Source: Candidatus Aenigmatarchaeota archaeon
GTDB taxonomy: Archaea; Aenigmatarchaeota; Aenigmatarchaeia; PWEA01
Assembly: GCA_003554845.1 (NCBI GenBank)
Contig: PWHK01000017.1
Coordinates: forward strand, 11,242 to 75,241
Direction of reading: 5' to 3'
DNA: 64,000 nt
This document shows, one piece after another, positions 1,373 through 60,223 of this stretch. The position numbers and the translations under genes were made by a program. Below the pieces are notes generated by a model, which did not search any database, was not told the origin of the DNA, and saw nothing but the letters and a program-made list of their open reading frames with translations. Every line of letters begins with the position of its first letter. The first letter of the stretch is position 1.

Positions 1373-2778
1373 AATAGACTCATTATATAGTCTACTATTC
1401 TTTCAAGAGGCCCTTTTCTTCTGTAGACTTCACCTGTTATTTCTACATCCGTGGTGTTGTCCTCTACGATCTCTCCTTCAACCACATCCACGGTTCCCTC
1501 CAGATCGGCCTCGTCTCTTATCCTGACCTTGAAATCATACTCGCCGGGTTTTGCGTCCTTCCCTATTCTGTTTTCGAGCACCAGGGCCCTCTTTCCCTCT
1601 GGTTCCACCTCGACCCTTTCCTCGTTTCCTGTCCATCCTTCTTCGTTGATGGTCTTTTGATCCTCGTAGAGGTATGAGTATACAACGAGATCCTTGGCCA
1701 CAGAGTCCTGGTTTCTTATGAGAACGGTTGACTGCATACTTCCTCCCTGCTCCACCTCTTCATCATGGCTAAAGAGTTCGAACTCCTTTTCCCTTTCCGT
1801 GGGGTCCTCCTCTTCATCTGGGTATACATAGTTTCTGAGCGCCGACATCTCCCCACTGTCCATTCTGTTTATGGCTCTCTGTATATCCTGCATACGGACC
1901 TCGCACTTTTCCTCCTCAGTTTCCGTCTCCTCTACATCGGTGCAGACATTTTCAGAGAGATCCCAACCGTCTTCAGGAGGCATAACATAGGCCTTTCCCT
2001 CTTGCTTTATTTCACGGACCGTGGCTTCTCCAAGACCCTCGACCTGAATAAGATGCGCCAGGGAGTAGAAACTACCGCAGTCTTCTTTGATTCTGTTGGC
2101 TATGGTAGGGCCTATGTTTGTTATTCTTTGAAGGTCTTCGCTGTCGGCGCTGTTTATCTCTATCCTTTCTTCCTTGTCGTTTGTTTCGTTCTCTTCCTGA
2201 TCATCGTCTTCATCGCCATCCTCTTCTTCGTCACCATTTTTATCCTTGGGCCATCCTTCTGGAGAGGGTTCGGTGGAAAACCAGGCTGCTCCTGCTGCAA
2301 CGTCGGCCTCTGGTTCATCACCTCTGTGTACCCCAAGACCTATCGTTCCGGTCCCTGCACTGTCCTGATCAATTTCCATCTCCACACCCTGCCATCCATC
2401 TTCACTCTGTATTTCTAGCTTTTCCGAGTCCTTGTCTTCGCCCTCCACATCTGTATATCTTATCCAGGCCTCGCCTGTGCCTTCTCCTGGGACCTTGAAC
2501 CATGCCTCTGCAAAGTAGATTCCCTCTTCTACTTCGACCTCTTGGTATGCATAGTCAAAGTAAGGAGTCTCTCTGGCCGAAGCATTGTGTCCAAGAAGAC
2601 CTTCAATTCTGTAGTCGGCGTGTTGTGCAAACTGACCTGTCCAGTTAGCTATCCCTTCCTCGTCCCATCTACCGAGCGAAGGATTTTCAAGAAGATTTTC
2701 GGAAGCACCTGAGCCTGTAGCAACCCCTCCAGAAAGTACAAAAAATAGGGTGAGGAGAGTTAAACAGACTTTCCTCAT
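1369..2778 (-). CDS. Secreted protein with signal peptide, N-terminal beta-sandwich-like domain, acidic linker and ComEA-type helix-hairpin-helix DNA-binding domain
   Basis: N-terminal hydrophobic signal MRKVCLTLLTLFFVLSGG; the segment INSADSEDLQRITNIGPTIANRIKEDCGSFYSLAHLIQVEGLGEATVREI matches the ComEA HhH consensus; DE-rich low-complexity linker. Confidence 0.55.
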   Translation of the reverse strand: MRKVCLTLLTLFFVLSGGVATGSGASENLLENPSLGRWDEEGIANWTGQFAQHADYRIEGLLGHNASARETPYFDYAYQEVEVEEGIYFAEAWFKVPGEGTGEAWIRYTDVEGEDKDSEKLEIQSEDGWQGVEMEIDQDSAGTGTIGLGVHRGDEPEADVAAGAAWFSTEPSPEGWPKDKNGDEEEDGDEDDDQEENETNDKEERIEINSADSEDLQRITNIGPTIANRIKEDCGSFYSLAHLIQVEGLGEATVREIKQEGKAYVMPPEDGWDLSENVCTDVEETETEEEKCEVRMQDIQRAINRMDSGEMSALRNYVYPDEEEDPTEREKEFELFSHDEEVEQGGSMQSTVLIRNQDSVAKDLVVYSYLYEDQKTINEEGWTGNEERVEVEPEGKRALVLENRIGKDAKPGEYDFKVRIRDEADLEGTVDVVEGEIVEDNTTDVEITGEVYRRKGPLERIVDYIMSLF

Positions 2779-2828: not shown

Positions 2829-4811
2829 TCAGTAACCTGAAACGTCCTGTGGGCCGTTATAACCAACTATATCCGCTATCTCTTCGAGGCATTCTGGGTT
2901 GTTTGCAGTTCTCATATCACCCAGTTCCTCGTCCTTGAGAAGCGCCCTGAGGAACCTCCTTATCACCTTTCCTGATTCGGTCTCCGGAAGTCTTGATACA
3001 AAGTATATCTCACCGGGAGAAGCAACAGGTCCGACCTCCCTTCTCACAGACCTGACTATATCCCCTTTGAGATCCTCCGATGGCTCTGCTCCGTCGATCA
3101 GTATAGTGAAAACAGCAGGAACCTGGCCCTTTACATCGTGTGGCTTTCCAACTACTGCCGCCTCTGCTACCTCTTCAACCTCCTGAACTGCATCTTCTAT
3201 CTCTGCGGTTCCGAGGCGGTGGCCTGCCACCTCCATCACATCGTCCATCCTTCCAAGTATCTTGAAGAGTTTCTGGCCTCCTATCTCATGTTCTGTCTTG
3301 ATGCCTTCGTCTCCTGTAAAGTAGATCTCTTCGCCGTATCGGCTCCAGTACTCCTCTTTGTATTTATCTGGATTTTTGTAGACGCCTCTGAGCATTCCAG
3401 GTGAAAAGGGCTCCTTTATAACCACAGCTCCCTTTTCTGTCGGGTTGCCGTCTATATCCAGAATATCGTAGTTCATGGGTGGAAGAGGAGTTCCTGCAAC
3501 ACCAGGGACAAATGGACCGAGCCCTGGGAGGGATGTTAGAAGTATGCCCCCTGTCTCTGTCTGCCAGTATGTATCAACTATAGGACATCTTCCTCCACCT
3601 ACCTTCTTGAAGTACCAGTTCCATGTTTCGGGATCTATAGGCTCTCCTACGGATCCTAGTATACGGAGAGAGGAAAGGTCGTGCTTTTCTGGAAGGTCTC
3701 TGCCATGTTTTATGAGCATGCGCAGGGCGGTGGGTGCAGTGTAGAACTGGGTTGCCCCGTACTTTTCTATTATATTCCACCATCTGTCCAGATCCGGGTA
3801 GTCGGGTGATCCTTCGTACCAAACAGTGGTTCCTCCATGTATAAGAGGTCCATAAAGCGTATATGTATGGCCTGTGATCCACCCTATATCTGCAGTCGAG
3901 TAGAAAACATCGTCCTCGTGGAAATCAAAGACCCATTTCATGCTGAGGGCAGCCTGTACAAGGTAACCTCCTACGGAGTGCTTTATGCCCTTGGGCTTTC
4001 CGGTTGTTCCGGATGTATAAAGGAGAAAACCAATGTCCTCTGCATCCAGAGGCTCTGCATCGCAGCTTTCTTCTACGCCGTCCATCAGATCCGACAGGAA
4101 GTGATCCCTTCCTTCTACCATGGTTGGCTCGGTGTCTGCTCTGTTGACAACTATACAGTTTTCGGCCTCTACTCTATCAAGGGCATCGTTTATGTTGTTC
4201 TTGAGTTCCATTACCTTTCCTCTTCTGTAGAAACCATCGGCTGTTATCAGTAGATCCGATCCTGCGTCTTCCATCCGTTTTCTGACGGCTTCCGGTGAAA
4301 AGGCTGTATATACTATGGAGTGCCATGCCCCTATCCTTTGGCATGCGAGGGCTGCCATGGCAGTTTCCGGTATCATAGGCATCCAAAAAGTAACGGCATC
4401 GCCCTTCCCTACTCCAAGTTCCTTGAGTACGTTTGCAAACTTCTGGACACCTTTATGGAGTTCTGTGTATGTAAGAACCTCCTTCTCCTCGTCCGTGGGT
4501 TCAGGTTCCCATATTATAGCAGGCTTGTCGCCCTTGTCTTCGATATGTCTGTCCAAACAGTTGTACGACAGGTTTACCTTTCCTCCTTCGAACCACTTGA
4601 AGAAGGGAGGATTCCACTCATTTGTCCTTTCCCAGTCAGAATCAAACCAGTCTATAAGTTCTCTGGCCCTTTCTGCCCAGAATTCGACGGGGTTTTCCTT
4701 GGCCTCCTCGAATATATCCGGATTGGTTATAAACGCCTTTTTCTTCATGTTTTCTGAAGGCCAGTATATACCGTCCTTCTCGGTTACCCACATTTTTCCT
4801 TTGTCTGACAT
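2829..4811 (-). CDS. acs: Acetyl-CoA synthetase (AMP-forming)
   Basis: 660 aa; YTSGTTGKPKG AMP-binding motif; N-terminus typical of ACS (WFEGGKVNLSYNCLDRH). Confidence 0.9.
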   Translation of the reverse strand: MSDKGKMWVTEKDGIYWPSENMKKKAFITNPDIFEEAKENPVEFWAERARELIDWFDSDWERTNEWNPPFFKWFEGGKVNLSYNCLDRHIEDKGDKPAIIWEPEPTDEEKEVLTYTELHKGVQKFANVLKELGVGKGDAVTFWMPMIPETAMAALACQRIGAWHSIVYTAFSPEAVRKRMEDAGSDLLITADGFYRRGKVMELKNNINDALDRVEAENCIVVNRADTEPTMVEGRDHFLSDLMDGVEESCDAEPLDAEDIGFLLYTSGTTGKPKGIKHSVGGYLVQAALSMKWVFDFHEDDVFYSTADIGWITGHTYTLYGPLIHGGTTVWYEGSPDYPDLDRWWNIIEKYGATQFYTAPTALRMLIKHGRDLPEKHDLSSLRILGSVGEPIDPETWNWYFKKVGGGRCPIVDTYWQTETGGILLTSLPGLGPFVPGVAGTPLPPMNYDILDIDGNPTEKGAVVIKEPFSPGMLRGVYKNPDKYKEEYWSRYGEEIYFTGDEGIKTEHEIGGQKLFKILGRMDDVMEVAGHRLGTAEIEDAVQEVEEVAEAAVVGKPHDVKGQVPAVFTILIDGAEPSEDLKGDIVRSVRREVGPVASPGEIYFVSRLPETESGKVIRRFLRALLKDEELGDMRTANNPECLEEIADIVGYNGPQDVSGY

Positions 4812-9472: not shown

Positions 9473-9590
9473 GCGGCCGTGGTCTAACGGCTAGGACTCG
9501 AGCCTTCCATGGGCACGTCCGGTAAATTATTTTCGGGCGCGTAGTCCGGAGCCAGCTCGCTGTCCGGGTTCAAATCCCGGCGGCCGCACC
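9473..9590 (+). tRNA. tRNA-Gly (UCC) with 44-nt intron at canonical 37/38 position (intron ~9510-9553)
   Basis: Acceptor GCGGCCG/CGGCCGC; D-arm GTCT-AACGGCTA-GGAC; anticodon stem CGAGC/GCTCG around loop CTTCCA[intron]A; T-arm CCGGG-TTCAAAT-CCCGG; T-rich 3' flank. Confidence 0.7.
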
Positions 9591-30360: not shown

Positions 30361-30455
30361 GCTAACCCTTTGGTTTCTTTACCTATATAAAAATAATTAA
30401 AACAGAATCTTTTGTGTTATTAAAATATTTATAACAGTCCGCACATTGTAAACAT

Positions 30456-47132: not shown

Positions 47133-47819
47133 TCATACGTTTCTGATCTTACATTCTTCCACGTACTTTTCTGCTATGTTTCTGAACTCTTCGAGTTTTT
47201 CCCTTTTGAATCCATCGATGTCCATGTAGCCTTTGTCAAGTGTATTTCTTGGTTTGAACTGCTGTATAAAGAACCTTTCTGCCCCTTCGATTCTCGTAGC
47301 TATCTTCTCTATGGCTTGTCCGTCTATTATAGTAGGCACAGCCGTTGTCCTGAACTCATAGGACTCCAGTCCAAGAACGAAGTCTATACTTTCCTCTATC
47401 TTATCTGTGTTTACTTTTATGCCACATGCCCTGTCGTAATCATCGATGGGTGCCTTTACATCCATGGCAACATAGTCGACTAATCTCTTTCTGACGACCT
47501 CCTTGAGTGTTTCTGGTATAGTTCCGTTTGTGTCGATTTTTATATCGTATCCCATTTCCTTTACCCTTCCGAGGAAGTCGAAGAGATCTGACTGTATAAG
47601 AGCTTCGCCTCCTGTTAACGTAACGCCCTCGAGCTGTCCCTTCCTCTTTTCCAGAAATCCAAGTATATCTTCTTCTGGTATCTGTTCTGCTTCTTCTGTG
47701 ACAAGTTGTTTGTTGTGGCAGAAGGGACATCTGAAGTTGCATCCTACAGTAAAGACTATGCAGGATATCTTACCAGGGTAGTCTGTGACAGTGAACTTCT
47801 CAAGTCCACCTATTTTCAT
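47133..47819 (-). CDS. nrdG: Anaerobic ribonucleoside-triphosphate reductase activating protein (radical SAM)
   Basis: TVTDYPGKISCIVFTVGCNFRCPFCHN motif; overlaps nrdD by 4 nt. Confidence 0.9.
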   Translation of the reverse strand: MKIGGLEKFTVTDYPGKISCIVFTVGCNFRCPFCHNKQLVTEEAEQIPEEDILGFLEKRKGQLEGVTLTGGEALIQSDLFDFLGRVKEMGYDIKIDTNGTIPETLKEVVRKRLVDYVAMDVKAPIDDYDRACGIKVNTDKIEESIDFVLGLESYEFRTTAVPTIIDGQAIEKIATRIEGAERFFIQQFKPRNTLDKGYMDIDGFKREKLEEFRNIAEKYVEECKIRNV

Positions 47820-49954
47820 TTTGAGACCTCTTCCTTTGGAATTACTTTTTTGGAGTAGTCGGACCTACTTTCGAACTCTTCCCGTTTTCCGGGGTTCCAC
47901 TGTTCCTTTGGTCTGAGATATCCAACTATCCTTGAGTAAACCTCACATTTTGTTCTCATGCCATCCTTCTTGCATTCAGGACACAGGTCCATTTCTCCCT
48001 TGAGATATCCGTGCGTAGGACATACAGAGAAACTTGGTGTAAGTGTATAGTATGGAAGACTATAGTCCTCGGAGATTTTCTTTACAAGTTTTTTGGTTGC
48101 TTCTATGGAAGGCATCTTCTCACCAAGCCATGAGTGGAATACCGTTCCTCCTGTATACTTGGTCTGTAGAGGTTCCTGGCGGTCCAGTGCTTCAAAAAGA
48201 TCGTCTGTCTCACCGAACGGAAGCTGTGTTGAGTTCGTGTAGATAGGTTCGGAATCTCCCAGTTCGTATGTGTTGTAGACCTTCAGATCAGGGAAGTCCT
48301 TTTTGTCCTTCCTTGCTAGTCTGTAACTTGATCCCTCGGCAGGAGTTGCCTCCAGGTTGAATATCTTACCAGTCTCTTCCTGGAAGTCTGCTATTTTGTT
48401 TCTCATGAACTCAAGTGTTCTCTCTGCGAAGTCGTGGCCTTCTTCTGTTCCAATACTTACATCCTTGAGGTTAAGAGATGCTTCGTTCATTCCCACTAGA
48501 CCTATGGTTGAGAAGTGGTTTTCCCAATGTGTTCCTTGTGATTTCTTTATGTTTCTCAGGTAGAACTTTGAGTATGGGTAGAGCCCCTTTTCTGTGAACT
48601 CCTCGAGCACCTCTCTCTTGAGAACAAGGCTTTCCTTGGCCTTCACCATGAGTTCACCGAGCTGTTCAAAGAACTCCTCCTCATTTTCCGATAGATATGC
48701 TATCCTCGGTAGGTTCATTGTAACTACACCTATGGATCCTGTGAGAGGATTTGAACCAAATAGGCCTCCTCCCCTCTTCTTAAGTTCGCGGTTGTCCAGT
48801 CTTAGTCTGCAGCACATGGATCTTGCATCGTCTGGACTCATATCGGAGTTTACAAAGTTGGAGAAATATGGTATTCCATACTTTGCTGTCATCTTCCAGA
48901 CCGGGTCAAGTGCTTCCTTTTCCCAGTTGAAGTCCTCCGTTATGTTGTATGTTGGTATAGGGAATGTAAAGGGTCTTCCCTTTGCATCTCCATCCATCAT
49001 TACTTCCGCAAAGGCTCTGTTGAGCATATCCATCTCTTTCTGGAACTCTCCGTAGGTCTTTTCCTTTGTTTCGCCTCCTATCACAACAGGCTCGTCCTTT
49101 ATCATATCAGGTACCTCTAGATCCATCGTCAGATTTGTGAATGGAGTCTGGAACCCGACCCTTGTTGGAACGTTCATATTATAGAGAAACTTCTGCATTG
49201 CCTGCTTTACTTCGTCGTAGCTAAGGTCATCGTAGTGTATGAACGGAGCCAGGTATGTATCGAAGTTTGAAACTGCCTGTGCGCCCGCAGCCTCACCCTG
49301 GAGAGTATAGAGGAAGTTCACCAGCTGAAGAAGCGCAACGTCGAAATGGCTCGCAGGTTTGGATTCTATCTTACCTCTTACACCCTTGAAACCTTCTACA
49401 AGAAGGTCCTTCAGATCCCAACCTACACAGTATGGACCCAGTGTCCCGAGATCGTGTATATGGAAAAAACCTTCATTGTGTTTTTTTCTTATCTCAGGAG
49501 GATAGATCTTCTGAAGCCAGTACTTCCTTATTATTTTATCTGTTACATGTACATTGAGTCCCTGGAGAGAGTAACTCATATTGGAGTTCTCCTTTACCCT
49601 CCAGTCGTTTTCCTTTACATAGTTCTCTACAAGGGAAACATTGCTCATGAGTTCATGGAACTTTCTGAGCTCTTCGTGTTGGCTTCTGTAGAGTATGTAA
49701 GCCTTACCAGTCTTGTAGTGACCATTTTCAACAAGGGTCTTCTCTACCTGGTCCTGTACCTGTTCTACAGTCGGTATCTCGTTTTCAGCAAGATCCTTCT
49801 CCAGGCTTTCAATGACCTCATCACAAAGCTTCTTTGAAAGATCCTTGTTTGTACCTCCGACCGCCTGAGCAGCCTCCCATATTGCTTCTGTAATTTTATT
49901 TTTTTCGAATTTTTCTATTGTTCCATCACGTTTTTTGATAGCTTGAAAGCTCAT
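47816..49954 (-). CDS. nrdD: Anaerobic ribonucleoside-triphosphate reductase (class III)
   Basis: N-terminal ATP-cone; C-terminal zinc ribbon CPTHGYLKGEMDLCPEC and glycyl radical motif SRIVGY; 712 aa. Confidence 0.9.
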   Translation of the reverse strand: MSFQAIKKRDGTIEKFEKNKITEAIWEAAQAVGGTNKDLSKKLCDEVIESLEKDLAENEIPTVEQVQDQVEKTLVENGHYKTGKAYILYRSQHEELRKFHELMSNVSLVENYVKENDWRVKENSNMSYSLQGLNVHVTDKIIRKYWLQKIYPPEIRKKHNEGFFHIHDLGTLGPYCVGWDLKDLLVEGFKGVRGKIESKPASHFDVALLQLVNFLYTLQGEAAGAQAVSNFDTYLAPFIHYDDLSYDEVKQAMQKFLYNMNVPTRVGFQTPFTNLTMDLEVPDMIKDEPVVIGGETKEKTYGEFQKEMDMLNRAFAEVMMDGDAKGRPFTFPIPTYNITEDFNWEKEALDPVWKMTAKYGIPYFSNFVNSDMSPDDARSMCCRLRLDNRELKKRGGGLFGSNPLTGSIGVVTMNLPRIAYLSENEEEFFEQLGELMVKAKESLVLKREVLEEFTEKGLYPYSKFYLRNIKKSQGTHWENHFSTIGLVGMNEASLNLKDVSIGTEEGHDFAERTLEFMRNKIADFQEETGKIFNLEATPAEGSSYRLARKDKKDFPDLKVYNTYELGDSEPIYTNSTQLPFGETDDLFEALDRQEPLQTKYTGGTVFHSWLGEKMPSIEATKKLVKKISEDYSLPYYTLTPSFSVCPTHGYLKGEMDLCPECKKDGMRTKCEVYSRIVGYLRPKEQWNPGKREEFESRSDYSKKVIPKEEVSK

Positions 49955-49958
49955 TGGA

Positions 49959-50423
49959 TCACCTTTTTATTGTTTTTATTTCTTTTTCTAGGGTTTCAAG
50001 ATCGAAGTCCTTGTACACAGACGCAAAGCGTATGTATGCTACCTTGTCCAGTTTCTTTAGACCCTCCATAACGAGATTGCCTATCTTTTTGGACTCTATC
50101 TCATTTACACCTCTTCTTCTGATCTTTTTTACAACATTTCTTATAAGTTCCTCTATCTCTTCGTTGCTGACAGGTCTTTTTTCGCATGCCCTCAATATAC
50201 CCATTTTGAGTTTGTCCTGATCGAACTCTTCTCTTATGCCATCCTTCTTGATTACTCTGACAGAGAGTTCAGGCCTTTCATAGGTCGTGAATCTGTGTTC
50301 ACAGTCTTTACACTCCCTCCTTCTTCTTATGGCTGTCGAGTCTGAGATCTCACGGGATTCTAAAACCTTTGTCGACGAAGAACATGTTGGGCATTTCAAA
50401 TTATCAGTCCTTTTTACTATCAA
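49959..50423 (-). CDS. nrdR: Transcriptional repressor NrdR (zinc ribbon + ATP-cone)
   Basis: MIVKRTDNLKCPTCSSSTKVLESREISDSTAIRRRRECKDCEHRFTTYE and an ATP-cone domain; directly upstream of nrdD-nrdG. Confidence 0.85.
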   Translation of the reverse strand: MIVKRTDNLKCPTCSSSTKVLESREISDSTAIRRRRECKDCEHRFTTYERPELSVRVIKKDGIREEFDQDKLKMGILRACEKRPVSNEEIEELIRNVVKKIRRRGVNEIESKKIGNLVMEGLKKLDKVAYIRFASVYKDFDLETLEKEIKTIKR

Positions 50424-50430
50424 CCTGTAA

Positions 50431-50446
50431 CTACTATATGTTGTGT
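50431..50446. promoter_or_regulatory. Candidate NrdR box (ctaCTATATgTTGTGT) between the putative TATA element (cccTATATATggg, ~50463-50476) and the nrdR start
   Basis: 13/16 match to the bacterial NrdR-box consensus acaCwAtATaTwGtgt; positioned to overlap the predicted transcription start. Confidence 0.4.
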
Positions 50447-50566
50447 TGTTTTTTTGTTGAGGCCCTATATATGGGGACTCATGCTAGAGATAGTTCCCCT
50501 TCTATATAAATTTTTTTATAGAGTAAAACATATTTACGGAAATAGGTTTTACTAAAAACAATTCTG

Positions 50567-60084: not shown

Positions 60085-60223
60085 ACAGACAATATATTAT
60101 GGAAGATTAAAAAGCTTTCTTAGGTTTTTTGTTTTCCTTTTAGTAACAACAAAGATTTTATATAGTTACAGGGCAAATAAGAAATATCTTAAAAAGAACT
60201 TCTTTTTTTGGAGGTGAAAGCTA

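Follow-up and report, generated by a model that had tools for sequence, protein, structure and literature searches.

Predicted tandem NrdR operator downstream of a putative archaeal promoter element at a class III ribonucleotide reductase operon of Candidatus Aenigmatarchaeota

Mechanistic work on NrdR, a nucleotide-sensing repressor of ribonucleotide reductase (RNR) genes, has all been carried out in bacteria, even though the protein is reported in about one fifth of archaeal genomes. One study mentions it in 'some archaea' (PMC9110341), another puts its share of archaeal genomes at 22% (PMC13584703), and a 2025 preprint describes it as having no archaeal orthologues. NrdR sites consist of two 16-bp boxes with 15-16 bp between them, each box being partially palindromic with highly conserved C4, A6, A8, T9, T11 and G13, and both boxes are required by bacterial NrdR (PMC13584703).

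In the nrdRJ operon of Streptomyces coelicolor (PMC9110341; PDB 7P3F), nrdR is the first gene of a self-repressing RNR operon, its product combines a zinc ribbon with a two-site ATP-cone, and two 16-bp boxes with a 15-16 bp linker lie over the polymerase-binding and start region. The locus analysed here, in a 64,000-nt (64-kb) stretch of DNA from a Candidatus Aenigmatarchaeota archaeon (hereafter the window), shares the leading position of nrdR, the spacing of the box pair and the conserved zinc-ribbon and ATP-cone residues, and is predicted to share both the self-repression and the placement of the boxes over the start site. However, the S. coelicolor promoter is of the sigma-70 type, with boxes over the -35/-10 elements, and its enzyme is of class II, whereas the window has a putative BRE/TATA promoter for TBP and TFB, boxes downstream of the core promoter element and a class III enzyme (nrdDG). 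The best structural relative of the window NrdR by sequence is the Escherichia coli protein (PMC12176259, PMC13584703), with an E value of 1e-41 as against 1e-29 for S. coelicolor NrdR (7P37). E. coli NrdR represses class III nrdDG via tandem boxes, so that the enzyme class is that of the window; unlike in the window, its gene lies outside the RNR operon, and both the host and the promoter geometry are bacterial.

A 2010 paper (PMC3019208) described haloarchaeal nrdR-nrdAB and nrdR-nrdBA operons derived from bacteria, which, like the window, have nrdR heading an RNR operon in an archaeal host. These operons encode class I enzymes, have clear bacterial donors and are located in some cases on plasmids, whereas the window nrdR lies inside a conserved archaeal L44e-S27e-eIF2alpha / Nop10 cluster and has no identifiable bacterial donor. 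We found no operator analysis of the haloarchaeal nrdR operons in the literature searched, nor, in a search that was thin on subscription journals, a description of archaeal NrdR boxes or of their relation to the TATA box.

Bacterial-type repressors acting on archaeal basal machinery are the norm in archaea. Among archaeal repressors, MDR1, LrpA and Phr occupy DNA at the start site or beyond it and keep RNA polymerase from being recruited. The window operator resembles theirs in being located downstream of a putative BRE/TATA and, by prediction, in overlapping the start, and the same mode of action is predicted for it, although their protein families and ligands are unrelated to NrdR and the likeness is one of mechanism alone. 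An earlier note on this DNA had presented a bacterial-type NrdR in an archaeon as surprising, which was overstated since NrdR had already been reported in archaea (PMC9110341, PMC13584703). The locus is largely as expected, and its promoter layout is the only real addition to known NrdR systems.

The nrdR-nrdD-nrdG operon and its regulator

In the ORF list of the 64-kb window, nrdR, nrdD and nrdG are packed closely on the minus strand (47133-50423). Profile matches and gene spacing bear out the earlier reading of an archaeal operon headed by nrdR, with the following features:

49959-50399, minus strand: nrdR coding sequence, 146 aa, TTG start (TIGR00244, 181.9 bits; PF22811 and PF03477)
49956-49964, minus strand: Shine-Dalgarno-like element AGGTGATCC of nrdD, whose span includes the stop codon of nrdR (TGA, 49959-49961), from direct reading of the sequence
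47816-49954, minus strand: nrdD, encoding a class III ribonucleotide reductase that has an ATP-cone of its own at the N terminus (NF006126, 1061.7 bits; PF13597, PF03477)
47133-47819, minus strand: nrdG, radical-SAM activase (TIGR02495, 207.7 bits)

A gap of 4 nt separates nrdR from nrdD, and the reading frames of nrdD and nrdG share 4 nt. The long form of the nrdR ORF spans 49959-50423 on the minus strand; since the TIGR00244 profile alignment begins at ORF residue 9 and the MKCP position is an ATG start in relatives, we place the true nrdR start at the TTG at 50399. One relative (L001) carries ATT at this conserved MKCP start position (3995-4003) rather than ATG or TTG, and has an in-frame TTG 30 nt upstream. 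A weak AGGA alone precedes the TTG start of nrdR, whereas nrdD has a strong Shine-Dalgarno-like element, AGGTGATCC being complementary to the 3' end of 16S rRNA, and the overlap of this element with the nrdR stop codon suggests that translation of nrdR and nrdD may be coupled.

The window genes around the operon are archaeal and include PCNA, primase, GINS, L44e, S27e, eIF2alpha, Nop10 and PAC2. The nearest genomes, at 86-91% NrdR identity, are MAGs from soda lakes and sediment that carry the label Candidatus Aenigmatarchaeota. Elsewhere in the window, a 116-nt tRNA match on the plus strand (9473-9588; Rfam RF00005, 51.5 bits) has a length that suggests an intron-containing archaeal tRNA.

The zinc ribbon and ATP-cone attributed earlier to the nrdR product were both recovered. 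The match to TIGR00244 (NrdR equivalog; COG1327) lies above the cut-off of 124.65 bits and covers profile positions 1-145 of 147, and the Pfam domains Zn_ribbon_NrdR (PF22811) and ATP-cone (PF03477) score 61.1 and 85.4 bits, respectively. The CxxC motifs C3-P-T-C6 and C30-K-D-C33 align with those of the E. coli and S. coelicolor proteins, and all four zinc-binding cysteines are kept in the alignment to S. coelicolor NrdR, for which residues of functional importance have been defined (PMC9110341). The DNA-contact residues given in that study are the specificity pair D15/R17, an RRRR motif, R12 and R37. In the window protein R17 corresponds to R16, the RRRR motif to residues 25-28 and R37 to R36, while R12 is replaced by K11 and D15, conservatively, by E14; the earlier note had let its reading depend on such zinc-ribbon DNA-binding residues, and the four cysteines, R16, RRRR and R36 are all present. 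Among the inner- and outer-site residues of the ATP-cone (K50, R51, E56, K62, F124, V127 and Y128; PMC9110341), K50, E56 and K62 correspond to K51, E57 and K63, R51 is K52, and F124/V127/Y128 correspond to F125/V128/Y129. The long C-terminal tail of S. coelicolor NrdR is absent from the window protein. As judged by profile and residues, the window ORF is a genuine NrdR.

A box pair and a predicted promoter upstream of nrdR

The region upstream of nrdR, taken in the direction of transcription, contains the following features:

50503-50519, minus strand: predicted archaeal promoter, with an A-rich BRE-like tract (50519-50511) and the TATA box TTTATATA (50510-50503)
50478-50482, minus strand: predicted transcription start at about 50480 (G after T), 23 nt past the TATA box
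50462-50477, minus strand: distal NrdR box TCCCCATATATAGGGC, agreeing with the consensus at 11 of 16 positions and at 6 of 6 key positions
50447-50461, minus strand: inter-box linker of 15 bp
50431-50446, minus strand: proximal NrdR box ACACAACATATAGTAG, agreeing with the consensus at 13 of 16 positions and at 6 of 6 key positions
50412-50425, minus strand: conserved leader block GGTTGATAGTAAAA with core CAATAGTAAA, kept to 79% NrdR identity

The proximal box is the 16-mer already recognised as a 13/16 match to the NrdR-box consensus; it is indeed present and is conserved in relatives. It reads CTACTATATGTTGTGT on the plus strand and ACACAACATATAGTAG on the coding strand, where the consensus matched is ACACWATATATWGTGT. 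Upstream of it, the palindrome cccTATATATggg (50463-50475) lies inside the distal box, which is AT-rich in the window and whose flanks (tccC...Gggc) differ from the bacterial aca/tgt flanks. The coding strand from 50477 down to 50431 can thus be written as TCCCCATATATAGGGC-(15 nt)-ACACAACATATAGTAG, with the two boxes 31 bp apart from start to start. At the level of sequence, the window locus carries every feature expected of an NrdR and of a tandem NrdR operator.

One 13/16 box alone is weak evidence, and the strong signal is the box pair. A single-box scan of the 64-kb window allowing up to three mismatches returned four matches where 0.6 were expected. By comparison, a pair scan demanding at least 11 of 12 key positions and a linker of 15-16 bp returned exactly one site in the window, at nrdR, with 12 of 12 key positions. 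In 200 dinucleotide-preserving shuffles, a test that like the motif-blind footprint alignment described below is independent of the pair scan, the mean was 0.010 perfect pairs per window and two of the 200 shuffles gave any. The boxes might be taken for chance matches, with NrdR acting elsewhere or not at all, given that the intergenic DNA is AT-rich and that the window holds four single boxes with up to three mismatches. However, a pair is expected only at the shuffled rate, and the same layout recurs in every relative with nrdR heading an RNR gene, to 57% NrdR identity and in other archaeal phyla. We therefore give almost no credence to a chance origin, which for the box pair is effectively refuted.

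The remaining single 13/16 matches, at window positions 1378-1393, 30402-30417 and 60087-60102, each miss one key position and have neither a partner box nor an adjacent RNR gene. They were rejected as operators and taken as chance. The match at 60087 lies directly against the start of a small membrane ORF with a C2H2-type zinc finger.

Upstream of the box pair, the TATA box TTTATATA ends 25 nt before the distal box. The TATA element is found in all close relatives as AAAAAAnnTTTA(A/T)ATA, within the BRE/TATA pattern AAAAAAnnTTTAWATA, and a survey upstream of crude gene calls in the window found only 16 occurrences of TTTAWATA, at scattered distances to genes. Between the TATA-like element and the distal box, the near-constant interval of 18-26 nt in one group of relatives compares with 19 nt in the Nanoarchaeia locus, 13 nt in another Aenigmarchaeota locus (L027) and 4 nt in the Asgard one. 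In archaeal promoters an AT-rich TATA box of 8 bp follows a purine-rich BRE about 23-27 bp upstream of the start, with its centre near -26/-27, and by this rule the start site is predicted near 50480. From that start the boxes would lie at about +4 to +19 and +35 to +50, in a leader of about 81 nt. Assuming that 50503-50519 functions as the promoter, the operator would be located at and after the start site, not between the TATA box and the start.

This layout differs from the one proposed in the earlier note, in which the palindrome cccTATATATggg was the TATA box and a single NrdR box lay between it and the gene. On such a reading NrdR would act between TATA box and start or compete with TBP at the palindrome. 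The core of the palindrome is TATA-like (ATATATA or ATATAT) in the window, L001 and L020, and with a TATA box at this position the proximal box would overlap the start site. In L002-L004, L013 and L014, however, CACATATAG or CACATGTAG forms the core; neither resembles a TATA box, and the six key positions are nevertheless kept. Exactly 15-16 bp separate the palindrome from the proximal box, a stronger and conserved BRE/TATA element is present 25 nt upstream, and bacterial NrdR requires both boxes (PMC13584703). We consider it unlikely that the palindrome is the TATA box and read it instead as the distal NrdR box, with all six key positions, which corrects a tempting misreading of an AT-rich NrdR box. 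Being AT-rich, the window distal box could conceivably also be a site for TBP. The best reading of the locus is still the autorepression at an archaeal promoter that was suggested before, with the 16-mer predicted to lie past the transcription start and not between it and the TATA box.

Conservation in archaeal relatives and predicted mode of action

When the DNA upstream of nrdR from the window and from four close relatives was aligned blind to the motif, the resulting footprint had three conserved blocks, namely the A-rich tract with TTTA(A/T)ATA and the two boxes. The proximal box is nearly invariant among the relatives, and the distal box is conserved with variation at positions 7 and 10. 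The linker is scrambled in sequence and retains a length of 15-16 bp in the close relatives. The leader block GGTTGATAGTAAAA, located after the proximal box and ahead of the start codon, does not qualify as an NrdR box, and no structure is predicted for it.

Metagenome and genome scans queried with one protein gave few close relatives, and the wider group of loci was obtained by look-up of exact proteins. Each of the archaeal relatives examined whose nrdR leads an RNR gene has a box pair just upstream of nrdR. Together with the window these make up 15 distinct loci (window, L001-L005, L014, L020-L023, L025, L026, L027 and L030), a set that leaves aside L012, L013, L015 and L028, whose boxes duplicate ones already included. 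The loci other than the window are:

L001-L004, L014 and L020: close clade, 11-12 of 12 key positions
L021, L022 and L023: 58-65% NrdR identity, 11-12 of 12 key positions
L005: Guaymas Aenigmatarchaeota, 57% NrdR identity, 11-12 of 12 key positions
L027: another Aenigmarchaeota locus, 12 of 12 key positions
L026: Nanoarchaeia locus, 10 of 12 key positions
L025: Asgard locus, pair at 1231-1279, 12 of 12 key positions, linker of 17 bp
L030: fusion locus, pair at 3446-3494, 10 of 12 key positions, linker of 17 bp, G rather than A at position 6 in both boxes

Thirteen of the 15 archaeal loci thus have a linker of 15-16 bp, the exceptions being L025 and L030. Across the 30 archaeal boxes, C4, A8 and T11 are kept in all 30, G13 in 29, and A6 and T9 in 28 each, a tally that is partly circular since the scan itself demanded the key positions. 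The pair scan returned no site at the Woesearchaeota locus L024, where nrdR stands alone, nor at the Bacillus loci. At the Nanoarchaeia locus (L026:1-7331), nrdR-nrdD-dut-nrdG run in one direction and tmk-folC-thyX lie upstream on the opposite strand, with the intergenic region in common. This locus is a compact dNTP-metabolism island around the NrdR operator.

The variation at positions 7 and 10 bears on the alternative that the palindromes are hairpins in the 5' leader RNA, with a role in attenuation, RNA stability or some uncharacterised form of riboregulation, and not protein-binding DNA. Both boxes would be transcribed if the start is as predicted, and positions 7 and 10 co-vary (T/A to C/G) in the manner of compensatory changes. 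Such symmetric paired changes are, however, equally expected in the site of a symmetric protein dimer, and the conserved bases are identical to those of bacterial NrdR boxes. A consensus fold computed for eight relatives contains only four pairs at -2.8 kcal/mol and gives no covariation signal, with a term of +0.11; the single-sequence fold has a z-score of -1.09, and an Rfam scan gave no match in the leader region. In the Asgard locus, moreover, the distal box lies upstream of the predicted start. An RNA element is accordingly a very improbable account of the palindromes.

We propose, as highly probable, that the box pair is an autoregulated NrdR operator on an archaeal promoter and that the bacterial NrdR cycle acts there. 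TBP and TFB would bind the conserved BRE/TATA element (50503-50519), with transcription starting from near 50480. When dATP rises relative to ATP, the ATP-cone of NrdR would be occupied by ATP at its inner site and by dATP at its outer site, and NrdR would form a tetramer. The two zinc-ribbon pairs of this tetramer would bind the 16-bp boxes at 50477-50462 and 50446-50431, which are separated by three turns of the helix, and the DNA would be bent. With positions of about +4 to +50, the boxes would be within and slightly past the RNA polymerase footprint. Since they would cover the start site and the early transcribed region, a block of polymerase recruitment or escape is predicted, without displacement of TBP/TFB. 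Binding of NrdR would shut off nrdR, nrdD and nrdG together, and high ATP would convert NrdR to non-binding oligomers and relieve repression. Because nrdR is the first gene, the circuit would be self-repressing, and because NrdD has an ATP-cone of its own, enzyme activity would probably be controlled as well. DNA binding by the window NrdR, its dependence on nucleotides and the transcription step that is blocked are all inferred here from sequence.

The order of BRE/TATA element, two boxes across the predicted start, nrdR and RNR genes provides a concrete testable case. It would allow testing how a tetrameric, DNA-bending, nucleotide-sensing repressor disturbs the initiation complex of TBP, TFB and RNA polymerase. 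In the small genomes of DPANN archaea, where regulators are few, dNTP supply would be among the few pathways with dedicated transcriptional feedback.

Possible long residence of NrdR in the lineage, and NrdR-NrdD fusions

A neighbour-joining tree of labelled homologues has a star-like shape in which DPANN, Asgard and Thermotogota sequences are mixed together and only the window's own clade is clearly monophyletic, and no bacterial donor of the window NrdR can be named from it. The gene order primase-GINS-L44e-S27e-eIF2alpha-(nrdR + RNR)-Nop10-PAC2 is kept in L020 and, minus the uppermost genes, in L022. L023, at 58% NrdR identity, has the window's genes upstream of nrdR (primase, GINS, L44e, eIF2alpha), and its fetched locus ends within the RNR. 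This conserved synteny argues for a long residence of NrdR in the lineage. In L023 (3501-7450) and L021 (3501-6807), nrdR and its operator are followed by a class II RNR (nrdJ), which contains an intein in L023, where the window (47133-50399) has class III nrdDG. By this comparison of gene content, the RNR class has been swapped beneath a constant regulator.

A protein database search with the nrdR-nrdD junction of L005 as query gave 18 clusters in which Zn_ribbon_NrdR, ATP-cone and NRDD occur together. The named clusters come from Aenigmatarchaeota, Nanoarchaeia, Micrarchaeota, Woesearchaeota and Asgard MAGs, with identities of 35-80%. A Pfam scan of five of these NrdR-NrdD fusions, most fusion proteins being cut by contig ends, placed the zinc ribbon at residues 1-42, followed by one or more ATP-cones and by NRDD from about residue 262-283; four of the five have two ATP-cones and the Asgard protein has one. 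In L005 and L030, the tandem NrdR boxes are kept upstream of the fusion and after the TATA box. Our literature search, thin on subscription journals, found no description of NrdR-RNR fusions, which if confirmed would represent a new coupling of an enzyme to its own repressor.

The conserved neighbourhood, the constant operator over a swapped enzyme and the in-frame fusions of sister lineages that keep their boxes all fit a long residence. We tentatively suggest, as a possibility that we hold to be somewhat less probable than its opposite, that NrdR is long-resident and vertically inherited in this DPANN lineage rather than a recent import, and that the NrdR-NrdD fusion is a self-repressing 'trigger enzyme'. 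In that case the fusion would be an RNR with its own DNA-binding repressor module, and the window would represent the unfused state, 4 nt from fusion.

Individual fusion genes differ in how far their frames can be followed. At L005 (384-2396) the frame passes from the start of nrdR into NrdD uninterrupted by any stop codon. Other NrdR-NrdD fusion genes are located at L030:3501-4766, L031:3501-4821 and L029:3501-4604; the frames of L030 and L031 are continuous, and that of L029 appears to be frameshifted further downstream.
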